Shown piece after piece: positions 20,319 to 41,728 of a stretch of 64,000 bases of DNA. Below the pieces are notes generated by a model. It saw only the letters and a program-made list of their open reading frames with translations, did no database searches and had not been told where the DNA came from. Source of the DNA: Bacillota bacterium (GTDB lineage Bacteria; Bacillota; Clostridia; Christensenellales; SZUA-584); assembly GCA_023412005.1 (NCBI GenBank), contig JAEYOE010000012.1:324693-388692 (forward strand), written 5' to 3'. The position numbers were made by a program, and so were the translations under genes. Position 1 is the stretch's first letter. Each line of letters starts with the position of its first letter.

Positions 20319-20330
20319 GGGAGGTTTTTC

Positions 20331-21374
20331 ATGAAAAGAATCACAGTGGTTGCGATGGTGCTGCTGATGCCGTTATTGTTTGGCTGCCAATCCGCCCAAG
20401 TCTATAAGAACGACGACGGTGTTATTAAGATTGGATTTATGACGGATACGATGACGGTGGAGAGATGGGCCAGAGACAGGGACATTTTCGTCAAAAAGGC
20501 GGAAGAACTCGGAGCCACCGTGACTGTTCAAAACGCCTACGAAGACAGTGAACGTCAAAAGAAAATCGGAAAAGAAATGATCGATGAGGGCGTGGATGTT
20601 TTGGTGGTGGTTGCATACGATAAAGATTCGCTGTCGGATTTGGTGAAGTACGCTCAAAGTCAAAACGTTAAATTCATTGCGTACGACAGGCTGATCATGA
20701 ATGCCAATGTGGATCTTTACATTTCGTTCAACAATTACTCGGTGGGCCAGCTTATGGCGCAAAAGGCGGTGGAAAATGTTCCGAAGGGCAACTATCTGAT
20801 TCTTAACGGCCCTGAAACCGATAACAATGTCTCGATGATCAACAGCGCCTGCAGCGAGGTATTGGACCCGTATGTCAATGCCGGTGATATTAAAATAGTG
20901 GGCAAAACGTTTATCGATGCATGGCGCGATGAGGTGGCCTATGAATATGTCAGTGAGAAAATTGGCGAGGGGGTACACATTGACGCAATTATAGCGGGGG
21001 ATGACAGACTTGCGGAAGGTGCCATCAACGCGTTAAGTGAAAACCGGTTGGCCGGCAGTGTGTATGTAACCGGGCAGGATGCAGAGCTTGGGGCGTGCCA
21101 GCGGATAGTGGAAGGAACGCAGCATATGACGGTGTATAAGCCGATTGGTGTGCTGGCAGAGGGGGCCGCTGAGATTGCCGTAAAAATGGCATTAGGCGAA
21201 AAACTATCGAATGCGGGCACAATTAACGACGGGACGTATGATGTGCCGTATATCGTATACGAACCCACACCGGTGACGCGTGAAAACATCAACGATGAGA
21301 TCATCAAAGGCGGGTTTTACACAATTGAGCAAGTGTACAAGAACGTGACCGACAAAAGCTTGTGGCCAAAATAA
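20331..21374 (+). CDS. D-xylose-binding lipoprotein, XylF/XylFII-like
   Basis: Colinear with E. coli XylF (ERWxxDRDIFVKKAE, GVDVLV, AYDRLI, YISFNN, GQDAELxxxQRIxxGTQxMTVYKPI). Lipobox LLFGC. Confidence 0.9.
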   Translation: MKRITVVAMVLLMPLLFGCQSAQVYKNDDGVIKIGFMTDTMTVERWARDRDIFVKKAEELGATVTVQNAYEDSERQKKIGKEMIDEGVDVLVVVAYDKDSLSDLVKYAQSQNVKFIAYDRLIMNANVDLYISFNNYSVGQLMAQKAVENVPKGNYLILNGPETDNNVSMINSACSEVLDPYVNAGDIKIVGKTFIDAWRDEVAYEYVSEKIGEGVHIDAIIAGDDRLAEGAINALSENRLAGSVYVTGQDAELGACQRIVEGTQHMTVYKPIGVLAEGAAEIAVKMALGEKLSNAGTINDGTYDVPYIVYEPTPVTRENINDEIIKGGFYTIEQVYKNVTDKSLWPK

Positions 21375-21425: not shown

Positions 21426-23666
21426 TTAATGAGAAACCAATGCGGTCAGATCTTTATGAAGTGCCGACATCGCTGTATCGGTTGGTGTGTTATGCTGCAA
21501 AATATCCATGATGTGCTTGTAGATCAGCGCTTCAATTACGTTAACCGGCACCAATGAGCCATCCGGCTTGCGGACGGATTTACGCTGAACATTGCCGGGA
21601 TACGATTTGTATATCAGCGGCAGCCACGGGTAGTGATTGGCCAGTTCGTCGTTTGTGTAAACGTTCTTCAAAGGAGACTGACCATCGAGAATTGTGAAGT
21701 ATTTGCTCATATCCGAATCGCACGTCCACGCAATAAACTCAAGAGCTGCCGAAGGGTCTTGATTGGTGGAAGGCACCGCCAGACCCCAACTGCCGAGCAC
21801 AGAATGGTTTCCGGGCAGATTGGCATAGCCGATTTTACCGATGATCTTCGATTTTGCAATGTTGTTGACATCCGCAATAAACGCCGCGAAACTCACCAAC
21901 ATCGCGATCTTTCCGAGATAAAAATCCTCGACGGTTTTTTCGACGTTATAGGAAAGCGTTTGAGGCGGCGCATATTTGAATGCCTCGACAAGGCTGTTGA
22001 CACTCTTTTTGAATGCTGACGTGGTGACGAGCGGGTTCCCGTCGTCATCGAACACGCAGGTGTTATAAGCCCACACGCGTGAGAGCAGCTCGGGCAGCAG
22101 ATGCGCGTTGTTGCGCGCCGAGAAGGCGGTTCCGTAATCCACCGGAGACAGCGGGTTGATTGATTTCGTAAAAAAGCTGCTGATGACATTGAACTCAAAC
22201 CAGGTTCTCGGCACACGAAGCTTCGTTCCGTATTTTTTTTCAAACAGCTCACACAGCCTCGGGTTTTCAAACAAATCACGGCGATAGAGCAAAAATTGCG
22301 GCCCAAACAGAAACGGTATACCGAAGTAACGGCCGTCTGTCTTACCGACTTTCTCCGCAAGACCGTCAAGAAAAACGGATTTGTCGATAAAGCTTGACTT
22401 GATATGATCGCTGATATCCATTAGAACATTCTCTTCCACCAGAATATCCAGCCATGGGTTATCATACATACACACATCAAAGCCCGAAAGATAATCTTTA
22501 TCCATGAGCCTTGAAAGCAGTTCGCCGTGCTCGCATAAAGTCACATCCACGTCTATTCCGGTTTTTCGCGTAAAGACGGAATGGGTGCGGATAATACCAT
22601 GCGCATTGGGCGAATCGAGAAACAGAACGCGCAGTGTTTTTTCAATTGGTTTGCGCGGGCTGACCGGTGCCTTGCTCGCTTCGAAAAGATTCTTGCCTAT
22701 GATTTTGTCGTTGAGTATGATCTGCTGTTTCTCGAACATTAACGGGCTGTCGATATTGTTGAGCATCAGTTTTGCGGCCTTTGTCCCTAAATAATAGGCC
22801 GGCCGCATGGTGAATATAATGTTGTTATATTTTAGTATGCTCGACAGCGTTTCCTGACCGATTGACACCATAACCATGTCATCATACAGCGAAATTCCGG
22901 CGAGATAGGCCGCCTGCTCCAAACCGTTGGTTAGCAGCTGAGATGTGGATATGACGGCCTGCGGCGAATAATCCTGAAAAAGAGATATGCCGGTACGAAA
23001 GGCCTCTTCTTTGGTCATATTGATGTGACGAATCAGATTGGGGTCAGTCTCAATATGGCGTTCATGAAAGAAGTCGCGGTAGGCCTTTGCATACTTTTGT
23101 TCACAGGAGAAGTGCTCCTGCCCGGCCACCAGTGCAATTTTGGTGCAACCGTTGTCATACAACTGGTTTAACAGGTAAGTCATTGTTTCATACTGGTTGA
23201 AGGAAACGTAATTCGAATCGTATGACGTGACTTTTCTGTCGATGAAAAGCATAGGGATGTCGGTTAAGTTGTCGTAAAAAGCGTGCTCTTTCAGACAAGA
23301 CATGATAATAAGCCCGCCGACGTTTTTCCTTAATAGGTTGTTCACAATGGCTGTTTCGGTCTCGGGGACATCACCGGTCAGTGAAAGATTGACATAATAG
23401 CCGGCTTTTTTAAACTCGGCTTCAATGCCTTCAAAGATATAGCTGTAATAGTGCTCGGACGTGTTCGGCAGCACAACACCAATTTCCATATTGCTGTTGG
23501 AACGAAGATTTTTTGCGTATGGATTGGGTCTGTAATTCAGCTCGTCGATCGCTGCTTTAATCTTGTCGGCTGTATCAGCCATCACATGCTTGGCTCCGGT
23601 TAAGTAATTGGATACAGTGCCGACAGAAACCCCGGCGAATTTTGCCACATCTTTTATTGTGCTCAT
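21426..23666 (-). CDS. LacI-family regulator fused to an extra family-1 solute-binding-protein domain (746 aa)
   Basis: HTH MSTIKDVAKFAGVSVGTVSNYLTG, then a LacI-type PBP core to about aa 330. From about aa 345 there are SBP_bac_1-like motifs (LLYRRDLFENP, PRTWFEF, LGSWGLAVPSTNQDPSAALEFIAW). No signal peptide or TM helix. Confidence 0.85.
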   Translation of the reverse strand: MSTIKDVAKFAGVSVGTVSNYLTGAKHVMADTADKIKAAIDELNYRPNPYAKNLRSNSNMEIGVVLPNTSEHYYSYIFEGIEAEFKKAGYYVNLSLTGDVPETETAIVNNLLRKNVGGLIIMSCLKEHAFYDNLTDIPMLFIDRKVTSYDSNYVSFNQYETMTYLLNQLYDNGCTKIALVAGQEHFSCEQKYAKAYRDFFHERHIETDPNLIRHINMTKEEAFRTGISLFQDYSPQAVISTSQLLTNGLEQAAYLAGISLYDDMVMVSIGQETLSSILKYNNIIFTMRPAYYLGTKAAKLMLNNIDSPLMFEKQQIILNDKIIGKNLFEASKAPVSPRKPIEKTLRVLFLDSPNAHGIIRTHSVFTRKTGIDVDVTLCEHGELLSRLMDKDYLSGFDVCMYDNPWLDILVEENVLMDISDHIKSSFIDKSVFLDGLAEKVGKTDGRYFGIPFLFGPQFLLYRRDLFENPRLCELFEKKYGTKLRVPRTWFEFNVISSFFTKSINPLSPVDYGTAFSARNNAHLLPELLSRVWAYNTCVFDDDGNPLVTTSAFKKSVNSLVEAFKYAPPQTLSYNVEKTVEDFYLGKIAMLVSFAAFIADVNNIAKSKIIGKIGYANLPGNHSVLGSWGLAVPSTNQDPSAALEFIAWTCDSDMSKYFTILDGQSPLKNVYTNDELANHYPWLPLIYKSYPGNVQRKSVRKPDGSLVPVNVIEALIYKHIMDILQHNTPTDTAMSALHKDLTALVSH

Positions 23667-23732: not shown

Positions 23733-23744
23733 TGAAACGTTTCA
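23733..23744. promoter_or_regulatory. Candidate LacI-type operator O1, TGAAACGTTTCA
   Basis: Perfect 12-bp palindrome with the AAACGTTT core used by the PurR/RbsR-type LacI subfamily. It lies about 70 bp upstream of the regulator start. Confidence 0.55.
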
Positions 23745-23797: not shown

Positions 23798-23811
23798 TTG
23801 AAACGATTCAA
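23798..23811. promoter_or_regulatory. Candidate LacI-type operator O2, TTGAAACGATTCAA
   Basis: Imperfect palindrome (TTGAA/TTCAA arms) 22 bp upstream of the -35 element of the ABC operon promoter. Confidence 0.45.
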
Positions 23812-23832: not shown

Positions 23833-23860
23833 TTGACTTTTTTTCTGGATGCTTTATAAT
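23833..23860 (+). promoter_or_regulatory. Sigma-A-type promoter of the ABC / rare-sugar operon
   Basis: TTGACT-16 nt-TATAAT. Confidence 0.6.
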
Positions 23861-23963: not shown

Positions 23964-25454
23964 GTGGCTGAAGTATTGCTTGAAATGACCGGTATTCAAA
24001 AGTACTTTCCAGGTGTTCACGCATTGGACAACGCTGCTCTTTGTGTGAACAAAGGTGAGGTGCATGCACTCGTGGGAGAAAACGGGGCAGGCAAATCAAC
24101 GCTGATGAAGGTGCTGTCGGGTATTTATAAAAAGGACGGCGGCTCGATCAAATTCCGGGGCAACGAGGTAGAGCCGACAGACCCAAGACACGCTCAGACG
24201 CTCGGCATAGGTATTATTCATCAGGAACTGAATCTGATGCCGCATCTGACGGTTGCTCAAAACATCTTTATCGGCAAGGAACCGACAAAGGGACTGTTTA
24301 TTGACCAAGGCTCTGAAAACAAGCAAGCCAAGGAGATGCTTTCGGCACTGAACATAGACATTGACCCGTCTATTAAAGCCGGCAGGCTGACGGTGGCGAT
24401 GCAGCAGATGGTTGAAATCGCCAAAGCGCTCTCGTATAACAGCGAGCTGTTGATTATGGATGAGCCGACAGCGGCATTAACCGAAAGTGAAATTCAGGAG
24501 CTGTTTAAAGTCATCCGCGACTTGCGGGATAAAGGACACGGCATCATCTATATTTCACATCGTTTGGATGAACTGCCGCAAATCAGCGACCGTATTACCG
24601 TTATGCGTGATGGCCAATATGTAGGCACTGAGGAAACCAAGGCGGTGACCAAGGAAAAAATCATCAGCATGATGGTGGGACGCACGATTTATGAAAAGCC
24701 CAAATCGCACAGCACGGTTGAGGCAGATGCGCCCGTTGTTTTAAAAGTTGAAAACTTAATAGCCAATAACGTCAAAGATGTTTCGTTTGAGCTTAGAAAA
24801 GGCGAAATACTTGGGTTTGCTGGGTTAATGGGTGCGGGGCGCACTGAGACCATGCGCGCTCTGTTTGGGGCTGACCCCACAGTAAGCGGAAACGTTTATG
24901 TCGATGGAAAGAAAGTCCACATCAAATCGCCGAACGATGCGATATCACACGGTATCTGCTATTTATCCGAAGACAGAAAAGCCTTTGGTCTCACAGTTGG
25001 GTTAAGCGTAAGAGACAACTGCGTGTTGGCGTCTATGGACGAATTTATGAGGGGCCCTTTTACGAATGATAAAAAGATCGACGCAATAACGGAAGAATAC
25101 ATAAAAAAGATTGATATTAAGACGCCGTCGGGCAAACAGCTGGTCAGGAACTTATCCGGCGGCAATCAGCAAAAGATCGTTATAGCCAAATGGCTTATCA
25201 GAAACAGCGATATTCTGATATTCGACGAGCCAACGCGCGGCATCGACGTTGGGGCCAAGCAGGAGATATACAAGCTGATGAATGCGCTGGCTTCCGAAGG
25301 AAAATCGATCATCATGATATCGTCTGAAATGCCCGAATTGCTTCGTATGAGCGACAGACTTGTTGTAATGTGTGAAGGCAGTGTCACTGGTGAACTGGAT
25401 ATCGCCGAAGTCACACAGGAAAAAATCATGACTTTAGCAACAATGAATATGTGA
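23964..25454 (+). CDS. Sugar ABC transporter ATP-binding protein (RbsA-like, duplicated ABC)
   Basis: GTG start with an AAAGGA SD. Two Walker A / LSGGNQQK signatures. Confidence 0.93.
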   Translation: MAEVLLEMTGIQKYFPGVHALDNAALCVNKGEVHALVGENGAGKSTLMKVLSGIYKKDGGSIKFRGNEVEPTDPRHAQTLGIGIIHQELNLMPHLTVAQNIFIGKEPTKGLFIDQGSENKQAKEMLSALNIDIDPSIKAGRLTVAMQQMVEIAKALSYNSELLIMDEPTAALTESEIQELFKVIRDLRDKGHGIIYISHRLDELPQISDRITVMRDGQYVGTEETKAVTKEKIISMMVGRTIYEKPKSHSTVEADAPVVLKVENLIANNVKDVSFELRKGEILGFAGLMGAGRTETMRALFGADPTVSGNVYVDGKKVHIKSPNDAISHGICYLSEDRKAFGLTVGLSVRDNCVLASMDEFMRGPFTNDKKIDAITEEYIKKIDIKTPSGKQLVRNLSGGNQQKIVIAKWLIRNSDILIFDEPTRGIDVGAKQEIYKLMNALASEGKSIIMISSEMPELLRMSDRLVVMCEGSVTGELDIAEVTQEKIMTLATMNM

Positions 25455-25463
25455 GGTTAATGT

Positions 25464-26450
25464 ATGGAAACCAAAAGTGTAGCAAAAAAAAGACTTGATT
25501 GGACAAAATTATTGGCGCCGGCTGTTCTTGTCATATTGTACATCTTTTTCTCGGCGTTCGGTAATAATTTCTTCTCGGTAGATTACTTGGTCAATATTCT
25601 CGACGGATCTTACTTCATCGGCTTTATGGCCATCGGTGTGACGTTCGTTATCATCACAGCCGGTATTGATCTTTCACTCGGCACGAATATGATGTGTGCG
25701 GCGCTGCTTGGCGGCTATGCGTTTAACAACCTTGGGTGGCCGATGGGTGCCTGCCTGCTTCTTGTTATTCTGACGGCAACCGTTATGGGCTTTTTAAACG
25801 GTATCATGGTTGCTTACCTAAAGCTGCCTCCGTTCATTGCCACATTGGGCATGATGATGATCGGTATGGGTTTTGGTGCCATTGTGACCAAGGTTCAAAC
25901 CATGAGATATCCGACATTCGGAACGCCGGAAGGCTGGTTCAAGAATGTGTTTTACAAAACGGCAGATGGCATTCCGCTCGGCGCTATCTGGCTGGCGGCG
26001 TTCATCATTATCGCATTCCTGCTGCTGAATAAAACAAAATTCGGCCGGTATACATTTGCGATCGGTTCCAACGTGGAAGCGGCGCGTCTGTCGGGTATCA
26101 AAACCCGCCCGTGGCTGACGGCAGTCTACACATTCTGCGGTTTTTGCAGCGGTCTTGCAGGCGTGATGTACGCAGCGGTGTACACCTCCATCATTCCTTC
26201 CACCGGTAACGGCCTTGAGCTTCTCGGTATCGCGGGCGTGGTTATCGGCGGGACGAGCATGAGCGGCGGCACCGGCACGCTGGTCGGCACCATTATCGGT
26301 GTGTTCATCATGAGTGTGCTCAAGCAAGGGCTTATGTCGATGGGGCTGCAGAGCCATTGGCAGACGTTCTTCACAGGTATCGTCGTTATCGCGGCTGTGC
26401 TGCTTGACCAGTACCGTATCAGAAAAGGCAATCAGGTTAAAAAGGCATAA
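25464..26450 (+). CDS. Sugar ABC transporter permease (RbsC-like)
   Basis: Polytopic membrane protein with GIDLSLG and GGTSMSGG motifs. Confidence 0.9.
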   Translation: METKSVAKKRLDWTKLLAPAVLVILYIFFSAFGNNFFSVDYLVNILDGSYFIGFMAIGVTFVIITAGIDLSLGTNMMCAALLGGYAFNNLGWPMGACLLLVILTATVMGFLNGIMVAYLKLPPFIATLGMMMIGMGFGAIVTKVQTMRYPTFGTPEGWFKNVFYKTADGIPLGAIWLAAFIIIAFLLLNKTKFGRYTFAIGSNVEAARLSGIKTRPWLTAVYTFCGFCSGLAGVMYAAVYTSIIPSTGNGLELLGIAGVVIGGTSMSGGTGTLVGTIIGVFIMSVLKQGLMSMGLQSHWQTFFTGIVVIAAVLLDQYRIRKGNQVKKA

Positions 26451-26524
26451 AGTTACCGTTTATTGGTACAATGAATGACATCCTCGGGAATTTCCCGTTG
26501 GACAATAAAGAGGAGGATATAAAC

Positions 26525-27670
26525 ATGAAAAAAGCTCTATTGATGATGCTGACATTGGCAATGGTATTGTCTCTGGTTGCGTGCGGAGCACCGCAGACGT
26601 CTCCTTCGGCCAGCGAATCCGCTCCTGCTGAATCTTCGGCAGTTGTCTCGGAAGAACCGTCGGCTGAAGCACCTGCTGCGAAGCCGTACATCGCAGTTAT
26701 CTCCAAGGGTTTCCAGCACAAGTTCTGGCAGACAGTGCTTGCTGGCGCAACCGATGCTGCTAAAAAGTATGATGTGGACATGTCGTTCGACGGACCTCCG
26801 TCCGAGTCGGATATTCAGGTTCAGGTTGACATGGTGAACGCAGCTCTTGCGAAGAACCCTGCAGCTCTGAGTCTTGCGGCTCTTGATACCGAATCCTTAA
26901 ACGAGCAGCTCAACACCTGCATCGAGAAGAAGATTCCGGTTATCGGTTTTGACTCCGGCGTTCCGAATGCTCCCGAAGGCGCTATCGTTTCCACAGCTTC
27001 CACAGATAACGAAGCTGCCGGCGCTCTCGCAGCTGAAAACATGTATGCGAAAATCAAAGACGCTGTTGCCGGTGCTTCCAAGAGCAAACCCGTTGTGATC
27101 AGCGTTATCAGCCAGGATGCAACATCTGCTTCCATCACAGGCCGTACAACCGGTTTTGTGAACAAGATGTTCGAGCTTTGTGATGCGGCTCAGTCCGGCC
27201 TTGTTGCTGTGACCGGCCATGACAAATGGGCGAAAGCTTCCAGCGGTGATGTTGCGGTTGAAATCCTTGTTTCCATCGCGGCTTCCACCAGCGTAACAGA
27301 CTGCCAGACGGCTGCTCAGGCTGTTCTTTCCAAGAACCCCATTGGCGTGTTCTGCACAAACTCCGGTTCTGTTGATGGCATGCTGGCTGCAACGACCGAC
27401 GGTTCTGACCTTGACCGTGCAAGCGGAAAATACAAGAACGTTATCGTTGTTGGTTTCGACTCCGGCGCAACGCTGCTGAATGCAATCGAAAAAGGCTGGT
27501 TCGATGGTGCTGTGACACAGGATCCGTACATGATCGGCTACTTGGCGATTGAACTCGCTGTGAAGACTCTGAACGGCGAAAAAGTTGAGCCCCTTGTTGA
27601 CACAGGCTGCAAGTACTACACAGTTGACAACATGAAAGACGAAGACATCGCGAAACTGCTGTACGAATAA
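26525..27670 (+). CDS. Sugar ABC transporter substrate-binding lipoprotein (PBP type I, RbsB-like)
   Basis: Lipobox LSLVAC. An AGGAGG SD precedes the ATG at 26525. PBP type I fold. Confidence 0.88.
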   Translation: MKKALLMMLTLAMVLSLVACGAPQTSPSASESAPAESSAVVSEEPSAEAPAAKPYIAVISKGFQHKFWQTVLAGATDAAKKYDVDMSFDGPPSESDIQVQVDMVNAALAKNPAALSLAALDTESLNEQLNTCIEKKIPVIGFDSGVPNAPEGAIVSTASTDNEAAGALAAENMYAKIKDAVAGASKSKPVVISVISQDATSASITGRTTGFVNKMFELCDAAQSGLVAVTGHDKWAKASSGDVAVEILVSIAASTSVTDCQTAAQAVLSKNPIGVFCTNSGSVDGMLAATTDGSDLDRASGKYKNVIVVGFDSGATLLNAIEKGWFDGAVTQDPYMIGYLAIELAVKTLNGEKVEPLVDTGCKYYTVDNMKDEDIAKLLYE

Positions 27671-27695
27671 GCATTTAGACAATCTAGGTAGATGG

Positions 27696-27716
27696 GGGCA
27701 GCCGTAATGGCTGCCC
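27696..27716 (+). terminator. Stem-loop after the binding-protein gene (no clear T tract)
   Basis: GGGCAGCC-GTAAT-GGCTGCCC. Confidence 0.4.
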
Positions 27717-27797
27717 TCACTGCTAATATGAAATTTTTGTGAAGAAATGAACAAAACCTGTTCGGGAATGATTTGAAAAAGGAATGGGGTTAAGAAT

Positions 27798-28244
27798 ATG
27801 TTACTAGGCATACCCAAGTTATTATCACCTGAAATTATCGCAACATTATGTGAAATGGGCCATAGTGATGTCATTGTCATCGGTGACGCAAACTTTCCGG
27901 GAAAACGCTTTGCGACAGAAGGCGGCTGCAAGTTTTTACGTGCAGACGGACTATCCGGCACAGCGCTGCTGGAAGCGATACTGTCCGTGATACCTTGCGA
28001 TACATACACAGAGCATCCCGTTAAACTGATGCAGACGATGGACTGTGACCGTGATTTGAAAATACCCATTTGGGATGAATACAAAAGCATCGTCGCGAAG
28101 CACGATTCGCGTGGCGACAAAGCCATCGGATTTGTTGACAGATTCGATTTTTATGATCAGGCAAAGCAATCATATTGTATTATTCAGTCCGGCGAAGAAG
28201 CGATTTACGCCAATGTTATGATTCAAAAGGGAGTCATCAAATAA
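27798..28244 (+). CDS. RbsD/FucU-family sugar mutarotase
   Basis: MLLGIPKLLSPEIIATLCEMGHSDVIVIGDANFP is the typical FucU/RbsD N-terminus. Confidence 0.85.
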   Translation: MLLGIPKLLSPEIIATLCEMGHSDVIVIGDANFPGKRFATEGGCKFLRADGLSGTALLEAILSVIPCDTYTEHPVKLMQTMDCDRDLKIPIWDEYKSIVAKHDSRGDKAIGFVDRFDFYDQAKQSYCIIQSGEEAIYANVMIQKGVIK

Positions 28245-29755
28245 TGGCCGGGGAGTTGTTGCTTGGTATAGATATTGGAACAAGCGGCTGCAAGATCGCA
28301 TTGTTTTCGCGGGACGGAAGCGTTATATGCTCGGATACAGAAGAGTATCCGGTTTATTATCCTGCGCCAGGGTTTGTTGAGCAGGATCCGGACGAATGGT
28401 GGGAAGCCATCTGCCGCGGCACAAAGAAGCTCATCGAGCGAAACAGCATCAATACGGCTGAAATTGCCGGTGTGGGTGTAGACGGACAAAGCTGGGCGGC
28501 GATCGCTGTAGATGAAAACGGTGATGTGCTGACCCGCAATCCGATATGGATGGATACAAGATCTGAATCAATATGCCGGGAGCTCAATGAGTCGGTGGGT
28601 GAAGATCGGCTATTTGCCGTGTCCGGCAATCCGCTAAAAGCGCAATACACAACCGGAAAGATTATTTGGTACAAGAAAAACAAACCGGATGTTTATAATA
28701 AAATTAACAAGATACTGCAGTCGAACAGCTATATCGTTTACCGAATGACCGGTGTGATGAGCCATGATATGTCACAAGGTTATGGTCTTCATTGCTTCAA
28801 CATGAAAAAGGGCACATGGGACATGCAAATGTGCAGCGCGCTCGGCATTAACAGCAGCGTATTGCCGGATCTGGCGGCATGTCACGACGTTGTGGGCACC
28901 ATAAGCAAAAGTGCCGCGGCAAAAATGGGGCTGGTTGAAGGCATTCCGGTGGTTGCGGGCGGCTTGGATGCCGCATGCGGAACACTGGGAGCCGGCGTGC
29001 TGGAGCATGGGCAAACGCAGGAGCAGGGTGGGCAGGCAGGCGGTATGAGCATCTGCCTGAAAGAATACTGTGCCGACAAACGTTTGATACTGGGCTATCA
29101 TGTGGTGCCAGATAGATGGCTGCTGCAGGGCGGTACAACGGGCGGCGGCGGCGTGATGCGCTGGTTTCACGAGCAGTTTGGGTTTGAAGAGCAGCTTAAA
29201 GCCGCGCAAACGGGCGGTTCCTCCATGGCGCTGCTCGATGAACTTGCAAATACAGTGCCTGTCGGTTCAGATGGCGTGGTGTTTTTGCCATACATGGCCG
29301 GAGAACGCTCTCCCATTTGGGATGAAAAAGCCAAAGGTGTATTCTACGGGCTGGATTATTCAAAAACGAAAGCCCATCTGACGCGTGCGTTGATGGAAGG
29401 GGCAGCTTATGCGCTGCTTCATAATATTGAAGTGGCTGAAGGTGCCGGTGCCGCTGTCGGGACGATGCGCGCCATGGGCGGTGCAGCAAACTCACGTTTC
29501 TGGACGCAGATGAAAGCGGATTTGACCGGAAGGCCGATTGAGGTTCCGGGCTCAGATACCGCAACAACCTTGGGCGCTGCTTTGCTGGCGGGCGTTGGTG
29601 TGGGCGTTTACAGCGATTTTGCCGAGGCTGTTTCCGAAACGGTTAAGGTGAAAAGAACGCACGAGCCAAACAAGCAGCTAAAAGAAGAATACAATCGCGG
29701 TTACAGCACATATTTGGCGCTTTACGCCGCGTTGAAAGATTTAATGCATCAGTAA
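28244..29755 (+). CDS. FGGY-family carbohydrate kinase (xylulokinase-like; substrate unknown)
   Basis: LGIDIGTSGCK phosphate-1 motif and FGGY C-terminal motifs. TAATG overlap with the FucU-like gene. Confidence 0.88.
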   Translation: MAGELLLGIDIGTSGCKIALFSRDGSVICSDTEEYPVYYPAPGFVEQDPDEWWEAICRGTKKLIERNSINTAEIAGVGVDGQSWAAIAVDENGDVLTRNPIWMDTRSESICRELNESVGEDRLFAVSGNPLKAQYTTGKIIWYKKNKPDVYNKINKILQSNSYIVYRMTGVMSHDMSQGYGLHCFNMKKGTWDMQMCSALGINSSVLPDLAACHDVVGTISKSAAAKMGLVEGIPVVAGGLDAACGTLGAGVLEHGQTQEQGGQAGGMSICLKEYCADKRLILGYHVVPDRWLLQGGTTGGGGVMRWFHEQFGFEEQLKAAQTGGSSMALLDELANTVPVGSDGVVFLPYMAGERSPIWDEKAKGVFYGLDYSKTKAHLTRALMEGAAYALLHNIEVAEGAGAAVGTMRAMGGAANSRFWTQMKADLTGRPIEVPGSDTATTLGAALLAGVGVGVYSDFAEAVSETVKVKRTHEPNKQLKEEYNRGYSTYLALYAALKDLMHQ

Positions 29756-29768
29756 AGGAAAAATAGAA

Positions 29769-30818
29769 ATGAAAGCAGCAGTTGTCGTTGCAAATGAAGA
29801 TGTGAGGTATATGGATATCGAGGAGCCTCAGGTAAAGCCGGGCACCGTTAAGGTTAAGGTCGCGGTATCGGGAATCTGCGGTTCGGATATTCCGCGCGTA
29901 CTGGAAAACGGCGTGCACTTTTACCCGATTGTGCTCGGTCATGAGTTTGCCGGTGTGGTGGTGGATACTGGGGAAGGCGTAACGTCCGTTAAGGTCGGAG
30001 ACAAGGTGGCGGGCGCACCGCTCGTGCCCTGCATGGCTTGCGGTGATTGTCAGAAGGGCAATTACGCGCTCTGTAAGCATTATAGCTTTATCGGCTCGCG
30101 TCAGCAGGGCAGCAACGCGGATTACGTTGTGATTCCCGAACGCAATGCTGTTGTGTTCGATCCATCCATAAGCTATGAGCAGGGGGCCATGTTTGAGCCG
30201 TCAACAGTGGCGCTTCACGGTGTGCTGCAGTGCGATTACCGCGGCGGCGGCACGGTGGCGATATTGGGCGGCGGCACCATCGGAATATTCACGCTTCAAT
30301 GGGCCAAATTGCTCGGCGCGAAGAAAACCGTGGTTTTCGATATCAGCGATGAAAGGCTGGCGCTGGCAAAAAAATTGGGCGCGGATGCCGTTGTCAACAC
30401 GCTTAAAGACGGGTTTATGGAAGAAGCGCTGTCGTATACTGACGGCAGCGGTTTTAACTACGTGTTTGAAACAGCCGGTGTAACAATCACGATGAAAATG
30501 GCTTATAAGCTGGCTGCCACAAAAGCGCATGTGTGCTTTATTGGTACACCGCATGCCGACTTAACGTTCACCCCCGCCGAATGGGAGAACATGAACCGAA
30601 AGGAATTCAGGCTGACAGGATCATGGATGAGCTACAGTGCGCCATTTCCCGGCGTTGAGTGGACCATGACCGCCGAGTATTATGCGCAGGGCAAGCTCAA
30701 ATTTGACGAAGGCCTGATCGGTGAGCGCATACCGATGGAAAACGCGCAGGAAGCGTTTCAGATGTTTAAAACGCCGGGAGCGGTTAAAGGCAAGATACTA
30801 CTCACAAACAATATTTAA
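29769..30818 (+). CDS. Zn-dependent dehydrogenase, galactitol-1-phosphate 5-dehydrogenase (GatD)-like
   Basis: Colinear with E. coli GatD: GICGSDIPRVLENGVHFYPIVLGHEFAG, HYSFIGSRQQGSNADYVVI, LTGSWMSYSAPFPGVEW. Confidence 0.8.
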   Translation: MKAAVVVANEDVRYMDIEEPQVKPGTVKVKVAVSGICGSDIPRVLENGVHFYPIVLGHEFAGVVVDTGEGVTSVKVGDKVAGAPLVPCMACGDCQKGNYALCKHYSFIGSRQQGSNADYVVIPERNAVVFDPSISYEQGAMFEPSTVALHGVLQCDYRGGGTVAILGGGTIGIFTLQWAKLLGAKKTVVFDISDERLALAKKLGADAVVNTLKDGFMEEALSYTDGSGFNYVFETAGVTITMKMAYKLAATKAHVCFIGTPHADLTFTPAEWENMNRKEFRLTGSWMSYSAPFPGVEWTMTAEYYAQGKLKFDEGLIGERIPMENAQEAFQMFKTPGAVKGKILLTNNI

Positions 30819-30832
30819 AGGAGGAAATAAAA

Positions 30833-31843
30833 ATGGAAACGATTGATCCGAAAAAGGTTCCGCAAAGAACGTTATACGACGGAGGCAAAATGCCCTGCAT
30901 CGGCATGGGTACGTTTGGTTCCGATCGGTTTACGCCCGACCAGGTGTCGGCCGCAGTGGCCGGTGCGATTAAAGTCGGTTACCGGATGTTTGACTGTGCA
31001 GCGGTATACGGCAACGAAGACATGATCGGCGATGTGTTTCAGGACGCATTCGACAAAGGTATCGTTAAGCGCGAAGAGCTGTTTATCACAACAAAGGTAT
31101 GGAACAACATGCATGGCCGCGGCGATGTGCTGATTTCAATGGCCAAAAGCTTAAAAGACCTGCATCTTGACTACATCGATGCGTTTTTCGTTCATTGGCC
31201 GTTTGCGAATTACCATGCACCGGGGTGTGACGGTGATGCACGCAACCCTGAGTCTAAGCCGTTCTCGGTGGAAAGATTCATGGCCACCTGGCGGCAGTGC
31301 GAGCGGCTTGTGGACATGGGATTAACAAAATACATCGGTATGTCGAGCATGACGATACCCAAGCTGGAAGCCGTGCTGCCGCTGTGCCGCATTAAACCGG
31401 CTGTGATTGAGATGGAATTGCACCCGAGCTTCCAACAGCCTGAGCTTTACGACTATATCGTCTCCAAGGGAATCGCCCCGATTGGATTTTGCCCGATCGG
31501 TTCGCCCACACGGCCTGACCGCGACAAGACGGAAAATGACGTTGTGGATATTCAAATGCCTGAGGTTGTGGAAATCGCGAAGGCACACGGTGTGCATCCG
31601 GCGGTGATCTGCCTCAAATGGGCAGTGCAGCGCGGCCAAACCCCGATTCCGTTCTCGGTGTTTGAGAACGAATATACGAGCAACTTAAAGTGCGTGACTG
31701 AAGACCCGCTGTCGGATAAAGAGATGGATTTAATCAAAGCGGCCGATAAAAATTGCCGCCTGATTAAGGGCCAGGTTTTCCTTTGGGAAGGCGCCAAGGG
31801 CTGGGAAGATCTTTGGGATTTGGATGGAACGATTACAAAATGA
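30833..31843 (+). CDS. Aldo/keto reductase
   Basis: The AKR catalytic tetrad context is present (FDCAAVYGNE, TTKVW, VHWP). SD AAGGAGG. Confidence 0.88.
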   Translation: METIDPKKVPQRTLYDGGKMPCIGMGTFGSDRFTPDQVSAAVAGAIKVGYRMFDCAAVYGNEDMIGDVFQDAFDKGIVKREELFITTKVWNNMHGRGDVLISMAKSLKDLHLDYIDAFFVHWPFANYHAPGCDGDARNPESKPFSVERFMATWRQCERLVDMGLTKYIGMSSMTIPKLEAVLPLCRIKPAVIEMELHPSFQQPELYDYIVSKGIAPIGFCPIGSPTRPDRDKTENDVVDIQMPEVVEIAKAHGVHPAVICLKWAVQRGQTPIPFSVFENEYTSNLKCVTEDPLSDKEMDLIKAADKNCRLIKGQVFLWEGAKGWEDLWDLDGTITK

Positions 31844-33114
31844 ACACAGCAGAGTATTTCAATAAGTTAATTAAAGACCAGAAGAACGGCAGCGACAAAG
31901 CCATATGCTCGATATGCAGCGCGAATGAATTTGTGCTGGAAGCGGCCATGGAAGACGGGCGAGACAACGATTTGATGGTGCTGATTGAAGCAACGGCGAA
32001 TCAGGTTAACCAATTTGGCGGTTATACGGGCATGCTGCCCGATGACTTTATGGCCTTTGTCAGACGCATTGCGAAAAAGGTAGGGTTCGACGAAAGCAGG
32101 CTGATTATCGGCGGCGATCATTTGGGGCCGCTGACATGGCAGGGCGATACCGAGGCCGTGGCCATGGAAAAAGCCGAAGAATTGGTTCGCCAATATGTAT
32201 CAGCCGGGTTTTCTAAGATACACCTTGATACCAGCATGCGTGTTGCGGATGATTCAAAGACGGAGCGCCTTTCAGACGAGACGATCGCGCGGCGCGCGGC
32301 GCGCTTGTGCGCGGCAGCAGAGGCAGCCGCAAAGCAGGAGAAGCCGGTGTATGTGATTGGCAGCGAGGTGCCTGTGCCGGGCGGTGCTACAGAAAACGAA
32401 GACAGCATTGCCGTTACGTCGCCTGACGATTTGAAAGCGACGCTGAACACCTTTAAAAAGGCGTTCGCAGAAAAGGGCCTGAGCGATGCGTTGACACGCG
32501 TGGTTGCGGTTGTTGTGCAGCCGGGCGTGGAGTTCGCGGATAACACGATCATAAAATATGATGCATTAAAAGCCAAAGAACTGATCAACTGTGCGAAAAG
32601 CCTTGACGGCATTGTTCTGGAAGGGCACTCCACCGATTATCAGCCAAAGGCAGCGCTCGATATGATGCGCCAAGACGGCATCGCGATTTTAAAGGTGGGG
32701 CCGGCGCTGACATTTGCACTGCGTGAAGCGCTGTTTGCGCTTGAGGATATGGAACGTATTTTGTATCCGTTCTCGCCTGCGGGTGGTTACTCGTGCTTCC
32801 GGGATGTGTTGGAAGGCTGCCTGATGGCCGATGAAAAGTACTGGAAGAACTATTATCACGGAAGCGATCAGGACAAAGCATACGCGCGAAAGTACAGTTT
32901 GTCTGACAGATGCCGGTATTATCTCGACACCGAAACGATCAAAGCTGCGATAGAGCGGCTGATTACGAATATCAACGCCTGTGAGCTGCCTTTCGGTCTG
33001 CTGTCTCAGTTTTTTCCCGCCCAGAAGGAGAGAATTCTGACGAGCGAGAAAAAAGTGACAGCACAGATGCTGATTAAAGAGCACATTAAAGATGTGATCA
33101 AAACATACAGGTAA
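31840..33114 (+). CDS. GatZ/KbaZ/AgaZ-family protein (tagatose-bisphosphate aldolase non-catalytic subunit / tagatose-6-phosphate 4-epimerase family)
   Basis: ICSICSANEFVLEAAME, IEATANQVNQFGGYTGM and GGDHLGP motifs. ATGA overlap with the AKR gene. Confidence 0.85.
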   Translation: MNTAEYFNKLIKDQKNGSDKAICSICSANEFVLEAAMEDGRDNDLMVLIEATANQVNQFGGYTGMLPDDFMAFVRRIAKKVGFDESRLIIGGDHLGPLTWQGDTEAVAMEKAEELVRQYVSAGFSKIHLDTSMRVADDSKTERLSDETIARRAARLCAAAEAAAKQEKPVYVIGSEVPVPGGATENEDSIAVTSPDDLKATLNTFKKAFAEKGLSDALTRVVAVVVQPGVEFADNTIIKYDALKAKELINCAKSLDGIVLEGHSTDYQPKAALDMMRQDGIAILKVGPALTFALREALFALEDMERILYPFSPAGGYSCFRDVLEGCLMADEKYWKNYYHGSDQDKAYARKYSLSDRCRYYLDTETIKAAIERLITNINACELPFGLLSQFFPAQKERILTSEKKVTAQMLIKEHIKDVIKTYR

Positions 33115-33144: not shown

Positions 33145-33188
33145 TAAAAAAAGACTCACTAACTTTGTTCAGATGAGTCTTTTTTTTG
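33145..33188 (+). terminator. Intrinsic terminator of the rare-sugar operon
   Basis: AAAAAAGACTCA...TGAGTCTTTTTTTT. Confidence 0.85.
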
Positions 33189-33274: not shown

Positions 33275-33531
33275 AATAACATGTAATTAACTTAAGATTT
33301 ATGATAAACATTTGCTTTCGGCACGGGATAAGGCTAAGAATACCATAGGCGACCTCTCATTGATATCAACTGAAGAATCAACGATAAATGAATAAATCAT
33401 GTGCGGGGAAGCCATTGAGTTATTTATATATGTAGAAAATCAATTCTTTTTCAGAAGCCATTTGAAAAGCAGCAGGGTATGTATGTGAGCATATAAGAGA
33501 ACAGACACATCAACCAGAAGGGAACATGAAT

Positions 33532-35148
33532 ATGTTTAAGGTCTTTCTTGTCGAGGATGAAATTGTGGTTCGTGAAGGCATCCGAAACAATATTGATTGG
33601 GAACAGTATGGCTTTATTTTTGCCGGTGATGCACCGGACGGAGAGCTTGCGTTGCCGTTAATACGTCAGATACAGCCCGACCTTATTATTACGGATATCA
33701 AAATGCCTTTCATGGATGGGCTTTCTTTGATTGATATTATTCGCAAAGAGCTGCCGAAGACTAAAATTGTGATAATCAGCGGATATGATGATTTTACCTA
33801 TGCTCAGCAAGCCATTCATCTTGGTGTGGAGCAATATTTGCTCAAGCCGGTTATAAAAGAAAAAATGGTGGAGATTCTGATTGATCTGCATAAGAAAATG
33901 GATGCCGAATTCCAGATGCAAGAATACATTGCAAGGTTTCAACGCGAAGCTCAGGAGTATGAGACTTTTTCGCGCCGTCGGTTTTTTGAGCAAATTATTG
34001 CAGGAAATTTAAGCGTCTCTGAAATTTCCGAGACCGCGAAAGCCTTGGGAATCGACGTGAATGCACCATGTTATAATATTGTGCTGTTTTCACTGAACAG
34101 CGCCGGATATGATGGCAGCACGCCGGAGAGTTATACAGACACACTGGCGGTGGTGCAGGATCATTTCAGAAAGCTGATCGTCAGCCATTCGGAGCTTATA
34201 CTTTTCAATTGGAATGTGACGACATACGCTGTGTTGATTAAGGGCAGTCACGAAGAAATCGAGAATCTTACGAAGAAATGCGTTAACGACATACAAAACT
34301 GCTGTGCCATGGCTGGCGGTGATGTCGATTGGCACGTTTCATACGGGTCGCCCGTATCTCGGCTCAACGCCATTCCGGCTTGTGCTGCGGAGGCAAGCCG
34401 TATACTGTCATACCGATATCTTTGCCCGGAGGAGCATCTGCTGACTGAAGCAAGCATATGGAGTTTGAGACAGCAGAACGATTTAAAAGAGAACGAGCAT
34501 AAAACGGAGATTGATCAAGAGTGTGTCAGAAAATTTTTAAGCAATGGTGCAGCAGAAGAAATTGACCGTTTTATCGATCAGCTTCTGGAAAGCGCCGGAG
34601 AGGAAAATGTTTCGCTGCCGTTGTTTTGCAGGTATCTCGCATTAACGGTTTATTTTGCCTCCAGTGAATATTTGAATTCAATTGGCTGCCGGGCCGAGAG
34701 CTTTTTGTCTGCGGAGCTGCGTCCGAGCGACAGCGCATCCACGCCGGAGGAAGTCAGAAAATTTGCACGCCAAATTTTAGAGAAGACGATCGTTCTGCGA
34801 GACAGTGAAAGCAAAAAGCAGCAGCGTCAAATGCTGACGCTGGCGATTGAGTTCATCGAAAAGCACTACCCGGACGAATCCATTTCGCTCGATCGTGTGG
34901 CCAAAAAAGTGAACATCAGCCCGAATTACTTCTCAGCTATGTTCAGCCAGGAGGTGGGGCAAACCTTTGTGGAATACCTCACAAGCAAACGAATTGAAGA
35001 GGCCAAGCGGCTGCTTCGTCAAACGGACAAGCGTTCAAATGAGATTGCATTTTCGGTGGGATATAAAGACCCGCATTATTTCAGCTTTGTATTTAAAAAG
35101 GTTTCAGGCTGTACACCCAGTGAATACCGCAGAGGGGACAAGCTGTGA
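33532..35148 (+). CDS. YesN-type response regulator (REC + AraC HTH)
   Basis: REC motifs (LVEDE, IITDIKMPFMDG, KP). AraC HTH (YFSAMFSQEVG...GYKDPHYFSFVFKK). I prefer the ATG at 33532 for SD spacing. Confidence 0.9.
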   Translation: MFKVFLVEDEIVVREGIRNNIDWEQYGFIFAGDAPDGELALPLIRQIQPDLIITDIKMPFMDGLSLIDIIRKELPKTKIVIISGYDDFTYAQQAIHLGVEQYLLKPVIKEKMVEILIDLHKKMDAEFQMQEYIARFQREAQEYETFSRRRFFEQIIAGNLSVSEISETAKALGIDVNAPCYNIVLFSLNSAGYDGSTPESYTDTLAVVQDHFRKLIVSHSELILFNWNVTTYAVLIKGSHEEIENLTKKCVNDIQNCCAMAGGDVDWHVSYGSPVSRLNAIPACAAEASRILSYRYLCPEEHLLTEASIWSLRQQNDLKENEHKTEIDQECVRKFLSNGAAEEIDRFIDQLLESAGEENVSLPLFCRYLALTVYFASSEYLNSIGCRAESFLSAELRPSDSASTPEEVRKFARQILEKTIVLRDSESKKQQRQMLTLAIEFIEKHYPDESISLDRVAKKVNISPNYFSAMFSQEVGQTFVEYLTSKRIEEAKRLLRQTDKRSNEIAFSVGYKDPHYFSFVFKKVSGCTPSEYRRGDKL

Positions 35149-36587
35149 GCACTCTTTCAAAATTAAAAGTTAAAAATGAAAAAACAACGATGCACAGCAA
35201 GCTATGGAAGATCATATTAATCGTCGCGATTCCGTTGATGGCGGTGATATTTGCGATTTCGTCAATCGCTGTTGGGTACGCGCTGCAGTACAACGCGATT
35301 CTGAACAACGTCACGACAGCTGCGGATTTTAATCAGGACTTTACCAATGATATCAAATCAAAAATGTACTATTATGTGATTGAAAGCCAGTATTCGGACG
35401 GTCTGCCAATCGAAGAAGTTAAGTCCGCTGAGACGCTCGCACAAAAGCTGATTATGACGACGGCGGAAAAGGACAGCCTTCGTGCCATCAACAGCGTGCT
35501 GAGCTTGTGCCATAATCTCGAGGAAACAATATATCAGATTGCGGACACGAAAGGCTACGATGCCAAGATGGCCTTGCTGAATAACGATTTTAATATGATG
35601 GCCGATCTGATTCAGGAATATGTGTATACTTATGTTTATTATGAGGCCGTGCATCTTGATGATCTGCAGACTGCTATGATTACCAATATGGTCGTTGTGA
35701 TGGGCATCATATTTGTTTTGTCGCTGGTGCTGCTTTATATACTTTTAACGCATTCAAGAAAACTCAGCGCCAAAATTGTTGACCCGATTGACGAAATCTG
35801 CCTGCGCCTTGAGGAAATTGGCAAGGGTGATTTACTGGTTTGCGAACCGATTCAAGCGGACGTGGAGGAGGTTCAGCTGCTTTCTTACGGCATAGAGAGC
35901 ATGGTTGGGCATTTAAAGCTGCTGATTGAGAAGAACGCGGAGCAGGAAAAACAGCGCAGAAGCACCGAACTGGCGCTGCTTCAGGCGCAGATTAATCCGC
36001 ATTTTCTCTACAATACATTGGATACCATCGTGTGGCTGATCGAATCCGGGGAGATCAGCTCAGCTGTGACCATGGTGTACAGCCTGTCGAATTTCTTCCG
36101 TTTTTCGTTAAGCCGAGGAAAAACCGTCATCACACTCGCCGAGGAAGAACAGCATATTCGAAGCTATCTGGAAATCCAGCAGATGCGCTACCGTGATCTG
36201 ATGGAATATAAAATTGACATTCCCGATGAACTGAAAAAGAACATACTGCCGAAACTCACCCTGCAGCCCTTGGTGGAAAACGCCCTGTATCACGGTATTA
36301 AAATAATGCGCCGAAAAGGCATTATCAGAGTGACCGGCAAAGAGCAAGGCCAAAACATGATTTTGGAGGTAACCGATGATGGCTCTGGTATGTCGGAGGC
36401 GCGTTTGCAAGAGATACGGGCATCCCTCGAAAAAGAAATGAGCGACGGCTTCGGCCTCAGAACGGTTCATCAAAGAATTCAGATATTGTTTGGTACAGAA
36501 TATGGTTTGAGAATGGAAAGCGCCCCGGATGTCGGCACGAAAATTATCGTGACGATTCCCATGCAGACGATGGATAAGGAGAAGTGA
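35145..36587 (+). CDS. Sensor histidine kinase, His_kinase (YesM) type
   Basis: QINPHFLYNTLD H-box and HATPase motifs. The GTG start overlaps the regulator stop. SD AGAGGGGA. Confidence 0.88.
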   Translation: MSTLSKLKVKNEKTTMHSKLWKIILIVAIPLMAVIFAISSIAVGYALQYNAILNNVTTAADFNQDFTNDIKSKMYYYVIESQYSDGLPIEEVKSAETLAQKLIMTTAEKDSLRAINSVLSLCHNLEETIYQIADTKGYDAKMALLNNDFNMMADLIQEYVYTYVYYEAVHLDDLQTAMITNMVVVMGIIFVLSLVLLYILLTHSRKLSAKIVDPIDEICLRLEEIGKGDLLVCEPIQADVEEVQLLSYGIESMVGHLKLLIEKNAEQEKQRRSTELALLQAQINPHFLYNTLDTIVWLIESGEISSAVTMVYSLSNFFRFSLSRGKTVITLAEEEQHIRSYLEIQQMRYRDLMEYKIDIPDELKKNILPKLTLQPLVENALYHGIKIMRRKGIIRVTGKEQGQNMILEVTDDGSGMSEARLQEIRASLEKEMSDGFGLRTVHQRIQILFGTEYGLRMESAPDVGTKIIVTIPMQTMDKEK

Positions 36588-36589
36588 CC

Positions 36590-37585: not shown

Positions 37586-37842
37586 CGATTCCATAGTGGC
37601 CTCGGATCAATAACCTTGTCATGCGTGCGCAATAAATTGACGGTTTGGTTCTATGCCGATCATTCATGCAGTAATAATACATATACATAGATACTGATAC
37701 TGCGAAAATAGATTCATACAGATTCCACAACAGAGAATACTATTCAAAAAACCATATATTACGAAGTTTAATAGAAAAAAGCGGAAAAATTAGCGTGGAA
37801 AATAGATAATTATCACAAGTTTATAAAAAGATTAGCTCAGTT

Positions 37843-37892: not shown

Positions 37893-37981
37893 CATTATTG
37901 TTTTTCATTTGTTCGATTGTTAAAATAGACTCATTCTCTGATGTATAACGTCAAGAATAAAATCTGAAAGGAAATCGAATT

Positions 37982-41724: not shown

Positions 41725-41728
41725 AAAT

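Follow-up and report, generated by a model that had tools for sequence, protein, structure and literature searches.

How a locus with gat-type enzymes could degrade a hexose or hexitol without the phosphotransferase system (PTS) used in the Escherichia coli gat pathway is the question raised by positions 23964-33114 of the Bacillota bacterium DNA analysed here (a stretch of 64 kb, referred to as the window). The region, which stems from an uncultured gut-type Firmicute, contains eight genes, all on the forward strand according to the open reading frame (ORF) listing and translation. The domain call of every gene was supported by Pfam and NCBIfam searches, and all domain assignments of the original prediction, a note made from the sequence alone, were retained. 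The pathway class is strongly supported as a gat-like pathway in which the PTS is exchanged for an ATP-binding cassette (ABC) importer and a soluble kinase; the hexitol kinase step within it is plausible. The note had also stated that the operon carries no PTS, GatY, or PfkB-type kinase, and no genes for a PTS, a GatY-like class II fructose-/tagatose-bisphosphate aldolase, or PfkB were found across the whole 64 kb window either. The operon and its expression signals consist of the following features.

23833-23860, forward strand: promoter of the sigma-70 type, TTGACT-16 nt-TATAAT, an 11/12 match and the top-scoring one in the region
23964-25454, forward strand: RbsA-like ATPase of a CUT2 sugar ABC transporter with two ABC_tran domains and a GTG start (Pfam/NCBIfam)
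25464-26450, forward strand: ABC permease, BPD_transp_2, RbsC/GguB-like (Pfam/NCBIfam)
26525-27670, forward strand: lipoprotein solute-binding protein (SBP), Peripla_BP_4 (Pfam, signal sequence)
27798-28244, forward strand: mutarotase of the RbsD/FucU family, FucU-like (RbsD_FucU Pfam model, 128 bits)
28244-29755, forward strand: carbohydrate kinase from a separate FGGY subfamily, proposed to act as a galactitol kinase or alternatively as a D-tagatose 6-kinase (Pfam/NCBIfam, alignment)
29769-30818, forward strand: zinc-dependent medium-chain dehydrogenase/reductase (MDR), GatD-like and of the NAD type with Asp191 (NCBIfam, alignment, neighbor-joining tree)
30833-31843, forward strand: aldose-reductase-like aldo-keto reductase (AKR) with the tetrad D54/Y59/K88/H121 (PF00248, 169 bits; alignment)
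31840-33114, forward strand: GatZ/KbaZ-family protein, proposed D-tagatose-6-phosphate 4-epimerase (PF08013, residue signature)
33146-33187, forward strand: intrinsic-terminator-like hairpin with an A-run and a U-run on its flanks (-18.4 kcal/mol, z = -3.2)

The operon is proposed to be a LacI-type-regulated catabolic unit working in six steps. A galacto-configured aldohexose, most parsimoniously L- and/or D-galactose, and perhaps galactitol itself, would be imported by the ABC transporter (step 1), and ring opening would be sped by the FucU-like mutarotase (step 2). The AKR, probably with NADH, would reduce the aldose to the meso-polyol galactitol (step 3), and the FGGY kinase would phosphorylate galactitol to galactitol-1-phosphate, which is the job of the PTS in E. 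coli (step 4). The GatD-like NAD-dependent dehydrogenase would then yield D-tagatose-6-phosphate (step 5), and C4 epimerisation by the GatZ-family protein would give fructose-6-phosphate for glycolysis (step 6). Galactitol is a meso compound and is obtainable from D- or L-galactose. By established chemistry, galactitol and D-altritol/talitol are the only hexitols that give tagatose on oxidation. We estimate the probability of the whole six-step explanation, with the kinase acting before the dehydrogenase, at about 0.45. The route from an aldose through galactitol and tagatose-6-phosphate to fructose-6-phosphate appears largely supported by the sequence evidence, and within this route the kinase-first order is mildly favoured over the dehydrogenase-first one because the MDR is closest to GatD of E. 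coli. Of the pathway as originally predicted, the PTS-independent, gat-like hexose/hexitol class with an AKR/mutarotase front end stands; its substrate and the kinase-before-dehydrogenase order, as well as the cofactor use, are what we infer from the genes.

The genes are tightly packed, as had been described: the overlaps TAATG (28242-28246) and ATGA (31840-31843) were read directly in the sequence, and the remaining intergenic gaps are 9, 74, 127, 13, and 14 nt in operon order. The promoter named earlier was recovered as the best match of the region. The terminator, previously called strong, is present as a hairpin with a U-run that escaped a simple terminator scanner; a terminator after the GatZ-like gene is plausible, not exceptionally strong. 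The proteins of the window are 97-99% identical to those of one Bacillota metagenome-assembled genome (MAG), and a nine-gene layout, comprising the operon and a divergent regulator gene, was found in ten further Bacillota/Christensenellaceae MAGs (loci L002-L011, 70-95% amino acid identity). The eight-gene arrangement is not due to chance, since this layout recurs in L002-L011 and in Flexilinea.

The evidence for a gat-like core begins with the dehydrogenase. The MDR retains the catalytic zinc site (C37...H58-E59), the structural zinc site C88/C91/C94/C102 (C-x2-C-x2-C-x7-C), the GGGTIG motif, and Asp191. Among the solved structures, GatD (4a2c) was the closest with 257 bits, the next reaching 150 bits and xylitol dehydrogenase 140 bits. 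The GatD-specific segments SD(I/L)PR, FIGSR, and SWMxYSxPxPGxEW are shared by the MDR and are not found in xylitol/butanediol dehydrogenases. In a neighbor-joining tree of 15 sequences, the MDRs of the window, Lachnospiraceae, and Fusobacteria formed one clade with E. coli GatD in 156 of 200 bootstraps (78%). The MDR thus appears closer to GatD than to free-polyol dehydrogenases, and the structural match, the shared motifs, and the clade support bear out its predicted GatD-like character. For a preference for the phosphorylated polyol, the shared motifs are indirect evidence. All inspected GatD-like homologues have a phosphorylating system as neighbour, which is an FGGY kinase in some cases and a galactitol/pentitol PTS in others, and no PTS genes were found near close MDR orthologues in any locus inspected. 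The search for MDR homologues gave only proteins with at least 74% identity; three of their neighbourhoods were inspected, and all three were FGGY-linked. The GatD-like MDR group also includes the pentitol-phosphate dehydrogenases that are linked to a PTS in Listeria, Enterococcus, Lacticaseibacillus, and Bacillus methanolicus; they share the SYSxPFPGxEW insertion and act directly after a phosphorylating uptake step. They differ in being 36-39% identical, in their HK and GSH, which take the place of PR and GSR in GatD and the window MDR, and in feeding the pentose-phosphate pathway.

The GatZ-like protein is a full-length member of its family (PF08013, residues 8-423, 565 bits against a cut-off of 26.7). 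In alignment with E. coli GatZ (2fiq), seven of seven signature residues are kept (C20, E44, D87, H88, E171, H257, and K279), in the segments ICSAN, LIEAT, GGDHLGP, GSEVP, GHSTD, and ILKVG. The scores remained under the equivalog cut-offs of TIGR02810 agaZ_gatZ (505.4 vs 568.8) and NF011626 GatZ (462 vs 579). By the NCBIfam cut-offs, the operon enzymes are not equivalogs of GatD, GatZ, XylB, or FucU, and they clearly belong to the superfamilies concerned. E. coli GatZ and KbaZ are C4 epimerases interconverting fructose-6-phosphate and tagatose-6-phosphate, and the residue signature is listed in the same work (PMC11907403); rhizobial TagE performs the same tagatose-6-phosphate 4-epimerase function after ABC uptake of tagatose (PMC9720028). 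A GatY/KbaY partner is missing from the window, and 15 of the 20 GatZ-bearing related loci are likewise without an aldolase, which fits a stand-alone epimerase role. The earlier proposal of a GatZ-like exit enzyme acting without GatY is therefore supported, as a prediction, by the intact signature, the two published precedents, and the GatZ-only loci.

The wider comparison covered about 60 loci, found in Clostridia, Fusobacteria, and Chloroflexota and encoding a kinase at least 49% identical to that of the window; many come from gut MAGs of horse, goat, and chicken, from rumen MAGs, and from cultured Lachnospiraceae. The gene module is common in Clostridia. The MDR gene lies immediately 3' of the FGGY kinase gene in 58 of 63 orthologous loci, the AKR gene is present in 43 of 50, and GatZ and/or a class II GatY-like aldolase in 46 of 50. 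The exit modules comprise GatZ alone (15 loci), an aldolase without GatZ (26 loci), or both (5 loci), and PfkB accompanies the aldolase in 22 of the 31 aldolase-bearing loci. In Lacrimispora, the order is aldolase, FGGY, MDR, PfkB, aldose-1-epimerase, and AKR; its aldolase scored best on GatY models (375.6 bits), and its PfkB belongs to the 1-phosphofructokinase (1-PFK)/tagatose-6-phosphate kinase family (329 bits vs a cut-off of 216). The Fusobacteria plasmid L081 carries genes annotated as FGGY, AKR, GatD, tagatose-bisphosphate aldolase, 1-PFK-family kinase, a FucU-size protein, and aldose epimerase. The operon of Flexilinea sp. (Chloroflexota, L089, GCA_054814565.1, 824-12989) has the same regulator, ABC transporter, FucU, FGGY, MDR (77% identical), and AKR, and it ends with PfkB and a class II aldolase at the position of the window's GatZ, which is evidence for horizontal transfer and a modular exit step. 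The exit module is interchangeable among the relatives, and the replacement of GatZ by a GatY-like aldolase with PfkB points to D-tagatose-6-phosphate as the common intermediate. This swap amounts to a natural experiment on the drainage of tagatose-6-phosphate. The module was not described in the literature searched, including that on L-galactose/galactitol in gut bacteria and on galactitol in Lachnospiraceae. The names seen for its homologues ('xylulokinase', 'L-iditol 2-dehydrogenase', and 'aldolase subunit') appear generic or wrong, and, if the proposed pathway is true, routine annotations of a large gene block in gut and rumen Clostridia would be corrected.

The front end of the pathway is formed by the AKR and the mutarotase. 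The full catalytic tetrad of the AKR, predicted earlier, was identified by alignment, and the best structure matches are non-phosphorylated aldehyde/aldose reductases (196 bits). In the canonical IPKSxxxxR clamp, the Lys and Arg hold the 2'-phosphate of NADPH. The AKR of the window has IPFSVFENE at this place, and in 50 of 50 orthologues the clamp Lys is replaced by Phe and the Arg mostly by Glu, the segment reading IPFS(V/I)xExEY. This suggests an NADH-linked aldose reductase. Since the AKR is devoid of the clamp Lys/Arg and Asp191 of the MDR is of the NAD type, the pair may be redox-neutral on NADH. An apparently NADH-linked AKR combined with an NAD-linked MDR is relevant to tagatose production and to the problem of cofactor imbalance in sugar pathway engineering. 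The nearest structures to the mutarotase are the FucU proteins 3mvk (Bifidobacterium, 150 bits) and 2wcu; its score on the L-fucose mutarotase FucU model NF011949 (90 bits) is under the cut-off of 141. Mutarotase genes, of either the FucU or the aldose-1-epimerase type, occurred solely in AKR-bearing loci (30 of 43, compared with 0 of 7; Fisher p = 0.0008, a value that is indicative rather than rigorous given the phylogenetic non-independence of the loci). This restriction supports an aldose as the physiological substrate, and with it, within the same limit, the earlier suggestion that the mutarotase serves the reductase. If true, the locus would represent an oxidoreductive route by which sugars of the galactose type enter bacterial metabolism.

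The configuration of the sugar is hinted at by the relatives. Around the FGGY-MDR-PfkB-AKR cluster of Blautia sp. (L092, 24-15279) lie genes for an L-fucose isomerase, FucU, another FGGY kinase, and a Fucose_iso_C-like protein, neighbours that hint at a link between the module and L-fucose/L-galactose-type sugars. Together with the FucU-type mutarotase, the fucose-isomerase neighbours would point to L-galacto-configured sugars, and the GalM-like enzyme of Lacrimispora would point to D-galactose. Both mutarotase types, the FucU-size protein and the aldose epimerase, are encoded on the Fusobacteria plasmid.

The kinase belongs to the FGGY superfamily (FGGY_N PF00370, 215 bits; FGGY_C PF02782, 123 bits) and has the catalytic Asp242, its GGLD242A being aligned to GGGD233N of XylB. 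XylB is its best family model (TIGR01312, 375.8 bits), with a score short of the 380.25 cut-off, and the E. coli-type XylB model NF011601 gave 266.6 bits against a cut-off of 912. In alignment with 2itm, the kinase has GQSWA where XylB has GQMHG. Because of the XylB score under the cut-off and this replacement, the enzyme is predicted not to be a standard xylulokinase; a genuine XylB, encoded in locus L014, reaches 488 bits on the XylB model. No description of a hexitol, galactitol, or sorbitol kinase, or of galactitol in connection with FGGY, was found in the searchable literature. Polyol phosphorylation as such is known in FGGY, glycerol kinase and the erythritol kinase EryA being examples; the novelty claimed for the enzyme would lie in the hexitol substrate. 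In either step order, the specificity, as a galactitol kinase or a tagatose 6-kinase, would be one for which no description was found in the literature and, if true, would be a new FGGY substrate specificity. Pairs of a GatD-like gene and an FGGY gene were also observed outside the module: in L082 (S. meliloti pSymB), L083 (R. leguminosarum), and L087 (a Peribacillus plasmid), an annotated galactitol-1-phosphate 5-dehydrogenase adjoins an FGGY kinase, with a regulator of the SorC type and an ABC transporter beside it and, in Peribacillus, deoC as well. As characterised analogues, these rhizobial and Peribacillus pairs were ruled out, their kinases being 24-27% identical and of a different subfamily; they look like a parallel, apparently uncharacterised MDR/FGGY pairing.

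Compared with E. coli gatYZABCD, the operon shares a GatD-like zinc-dependent MDR, with GatD as its closest solved relative in the 78% clade, and a GatZ-family protein with all signature residues; D-tagatose-6-phosphate would be the hub here too, and relatives of the operon also carry a GatY-like aldolase. It differs in the absence of EIIA/B/C, uptake by a CUT2 ABC transporter with soluble phosphorylation by FGGY, the lack of GatY in the window, so that the GatZ-like protein would have to act alone as an epimerase, the extra AKR and mutarotase front end, and a LacI-type regulator instead of the DeoR-type GatR. If true, it would be a galactitol pathway free of the PTS. The operon is also like the rhizobial pathways combining ABC uptake with a tagatose-6-phosphate epimerase, with a kinase of another family and with an aldose reductase added at the front end. 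In the S. meliloti TagABCDE system and in A. tumefaciens C58 (D-tagatose/galactitol/D-altritol), ABC uptake is likewise followed by the formation of tagatose-6-phosphate in the cytoplasm, and a GatZ-family 4-epimerase gives fructose-6-phosphate without an aldolase (PMC9720028, PMC11907403). However, their polyols are oxidised in free form, AKR and FucU are absent, and their kinase is of the E. coli Nissle tagatose kinase family, encoded by a 963-bp 'sugar kinase' gene, which is too short for an FGGY enzyme of about 500 aa.

The D-tagatose cluster of E. coli Nissle 1917/B2 has a CUT2 ABC transporter, a cytoplasmic kinase, a tagatose-bisphosphate-type class II aldolase, and an aldose-1-epimerase-family gene (PMC9720028), and in its exit module and epimerase it is similar to the forms of the window module found in Lacrimispora and Fusobacteria. 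Unlike them, it contains no dehydrogenase, AKR, or FGGY, and its substrate is tagatose itself. Oxidoreductive aldose routes are known from fungi, for xylose through xylose reductase, xylitol dehydrogenase, and xylulokinase, and for D-galactose via galactitol. As proposed here, an aldose-reductase-type AKR makes the polyol there, an MDR re-oxidises it at C2, and an FGGY-type kinase follows. The fungal galactose route differs in leading via L-xylo-3-hexulose and sorbitol to fructose, not to tagatose-6-phosphate, and fungal reductases are NADPH-linked, whereas the AKR family of the window is without the 2'-phosphate-binding Lys/Arg.

In its fullest form, the proposed explanation makes the FGGY enzyme a genuine galactitol (hexitol) kinase replacing the PTS in a fully soluble gat pathway, in which, with an NADH-type AKR and an NAD-type GatD, meso-galactitol would be a redox-neutral hub taking both D- and L-galactose to tagatose-6-phosphate and fructose-6-phosphate. 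Such a route would be widespread and unrecognised in gut and rumen Clostridia and would have spread horizontally to Fusobacteria and Chloroflexota; this extended version is tentative and is somewhat doubtful as a whole. Several observations weigh against the proposed pathway. The MDR is only 39% identical to E. coli GatD, its score on the GatD model NF007642, its best NCBIfam model, is far under the equivalog cut-off (314.3 vs 550 bits), and its phylogeny is small and based on neighbor-joining only. The co-occurrence statistics are inflated by the phylogenetic non-independence of the loci. In L064 (Faecalicatena fissicatena, 10675-17303), which encodes an SBP, an ABC transporter, a GatY-like aldolase, an MDR (62%), and PfkB, the operon holds no orthologous FGGY up to the PfkB gene at which the locus stops and beyond which it may extend, and a distinct unit further upstream encodes an FGGY of 35% identity. 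In L014/L015, a genuine XylB adjoins the AKR, an arrangement that would suit a free-polyol dehydrogenase. Moreover, in the documented ABC-type galactitol/altritol/tagatose pathways the free polyol is oxidised and tagatose is then phosphorylated, with epimerisation of tagatose-6-phosphate as the next step (PMC9720028).

The published pathways, the sub-cut-off GatD score, L064, and L014/L015 all favour a serious rival in which the dehydrogenase acts first. Here, the AKR would produce galactitol, the MDR would oxidise it to free D-tagatose, the FGGY enzyme would be a D-tagatose 6-kinase, and the GatZ-like protein would convert tagatose-6-phosphate to fructose-6-phosphate. This is the logic of Agrobacterium and Sinorhizobium with FGGY in place of their sugar kinase of about 320 aa. 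Other MDR and FGGY pairs, those for xylitol and D-apiitol, also act dehydrogenase first. Nevertheless, the MDR clusters with the polyol-phosphate dehydrogenase GatD and not with xylitol/sorbitol-type enzymes, FucU never occurs without the AKR, which argues against a tagatose pyranase feeding the kinase, and the coupling of MDR and kinase persists in AKR-less loci. We regard this order as rather unlikely, albeit a real contender. The original prediction of a hexitol kinase working ahead of the dehydrogenase is accordingly the mildly favoured one, given the clustering of the MDR with GatD in 78% of bootstraps.

The enzymes might also act, with the chemistry partly as proposed, on another substrate, such as D-altritol/D-talitol, from which tagatose can likewise be formed by oxidation, D-talose/D-altrose, or a sugar related to L-fucose. 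The FucU type of the mutarotase, the L-fucose isomerase and additional FGGY flanking the Blautia cluster, and an SBP reaching no equivalog cut-off are consistent with this, and the use of altritol besides galactitol by Agrobacterium is indicated by the title of Wichelecki 2015 (cited in PMC9720028). Against it, 6-deoxy sugars are chemically unable to give a normal ketose-6-phosphate for GatZ/GatY, altrose and talose are very rare in nature, and galactitol is the sole common hexitol leading to tagatose-6-phosphate; another substrate is thus improbable.

It is very improbable that the kinase acts at C6 of the aldose and that the AKR is an aldose-6-phosphate reductase, like plant mannose-6-phosphate/sorbitol-6-phosphate reductases, with the GatD-like enzyme giving the ketose-6-phosphate. 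The AKR does match plant mannose-6-phosphate reductase (7s5f, 183 bits) and sorbitol-6-phosphate dehydrogenase (7s5i, 169 bits), near the best score of 196; however, the best matches are the non-phosphorylated type, and a FucU-type mutarotase works on free sugars. The FGGY kinases known to us phosphorylate ketoses, polyols, and sugar acids, not aldopyranoses. A fungal-type xylose route, with the AKR as xylose reductase, the MDR as xylitol dehydrogenase, the FGGY enzyme as xylulokinase, and the GatZ-like gene as an unrelated passenger, is suggested by the XylB model as best family match, the 'xylulokinase' names of kinase homologues in the sources, and the aldose-reductase-like AKR, and it was rejected as hardly credible, since the XylB cut-off and the GQMHG motif are both missed, the MDR is far nearer to GatD than to xylitol dehydrogenase (257 vs 140 bits), some loci have a separate genuine XylB, and the tagatose-type exit genes, often with a 1-PFK-type kinase, are nearly universal (46 of 50 loci) and needed by no pentose route.

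The control region upstream of the operon contains three further features.

21426-23666, reverse strand: divergent regulator with a LacI helix-turn-helix, a LacI-type sugar-binding domain, and a C-terminal SBP_bac_1 domain (Pfam, NCBIfam LacI-family matches)
23733-23744, no strand assigned: operator-like perfect palindrome TGAAACGTTTCA (motif comparison across syntenic loci)
23799-23810, no strand assigned: second operator-like site TGAAACGATTCA, 23 nt 5' of the -35 box

The regulator consists of 746 aa with a complete SBP_bac_1 domain and, judged from its sequence and hydropathy, has no signal peptide or transmembrane segment. The joining of two ligand-binding modules in one LacI-type repressor is an unusual architecture. 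The fusion gene is syntenic with the operon in L002-L011 and in Flexilinea (L089, 824-3064). The stretch between the regulator gene and the promoter holds the palindrome TGAAACGNTTCA twice, and the motif was found in the equivalent intergenic region of 11 of 11 syntenic loci and is nearly missing from the rest of the loci. Owing to this conservation, the LacI/SBP_bac_1 fusion protein is very probably the repressor of the operon.

The transporter has the composition of a CUT2 monosaccharide importer, with a fused two-domain ATPase, a BPD_transp_2 permease, and a Peripla_BP_4 SBP. No cut-off of a substrate-specific equivalog model was reached by its components, the ATPase scoring 611 bits on the RbsA model (cut-off 745); the top solved relative of the SBP is 4kqc (209 bits). 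The SBP ORF spans 26471-27670, and its true start is likely the ATG at 26525, which is preceded by GAGGAGG and begins a lipoprotein signal, MKKALLMMLTLAMVLSLVAC, with the lipobox LVAC. The 127-nt gap 3' of the SBP gene holds one more element.

27696-27716, forward strand: GC-rich hairpin GGGCAGCC-GTAAT-GGCTGCCC without a T-run

This hairpin is probably an mRNA stabiliser or a partial attenuator and may raise SBP expression.

The 64 kb window is a sugar-utilisation island. Three sizeable ORFs of 438, 183, and 366 aa, at 9681-10997, 15671-16222, and 37931-39031 (-), respectively, gave no Pfam match. Downstream of the operon, genes for an AraC-type response regulator, a histidine kinase, and an SBP-like sensor (33526-37585) precede those for a CUT2 ABC transporter (39093-42844) and the araB-like FGGY, araA, and araD genes (43159-46948), so that the region 33526-46948 is an operon for L-arabinose equipped with a three-component sugar sensor. 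On the other side, a second CUT2 ABC transporter (11422-15477) is accompanied by its own set of an SBP-like protein, a histidine kinase, an AraC response regulator, and an SBP sensor (16206-21374). The two-component/SBP-like sensor systems on both sides seem to be part of other transport operons.

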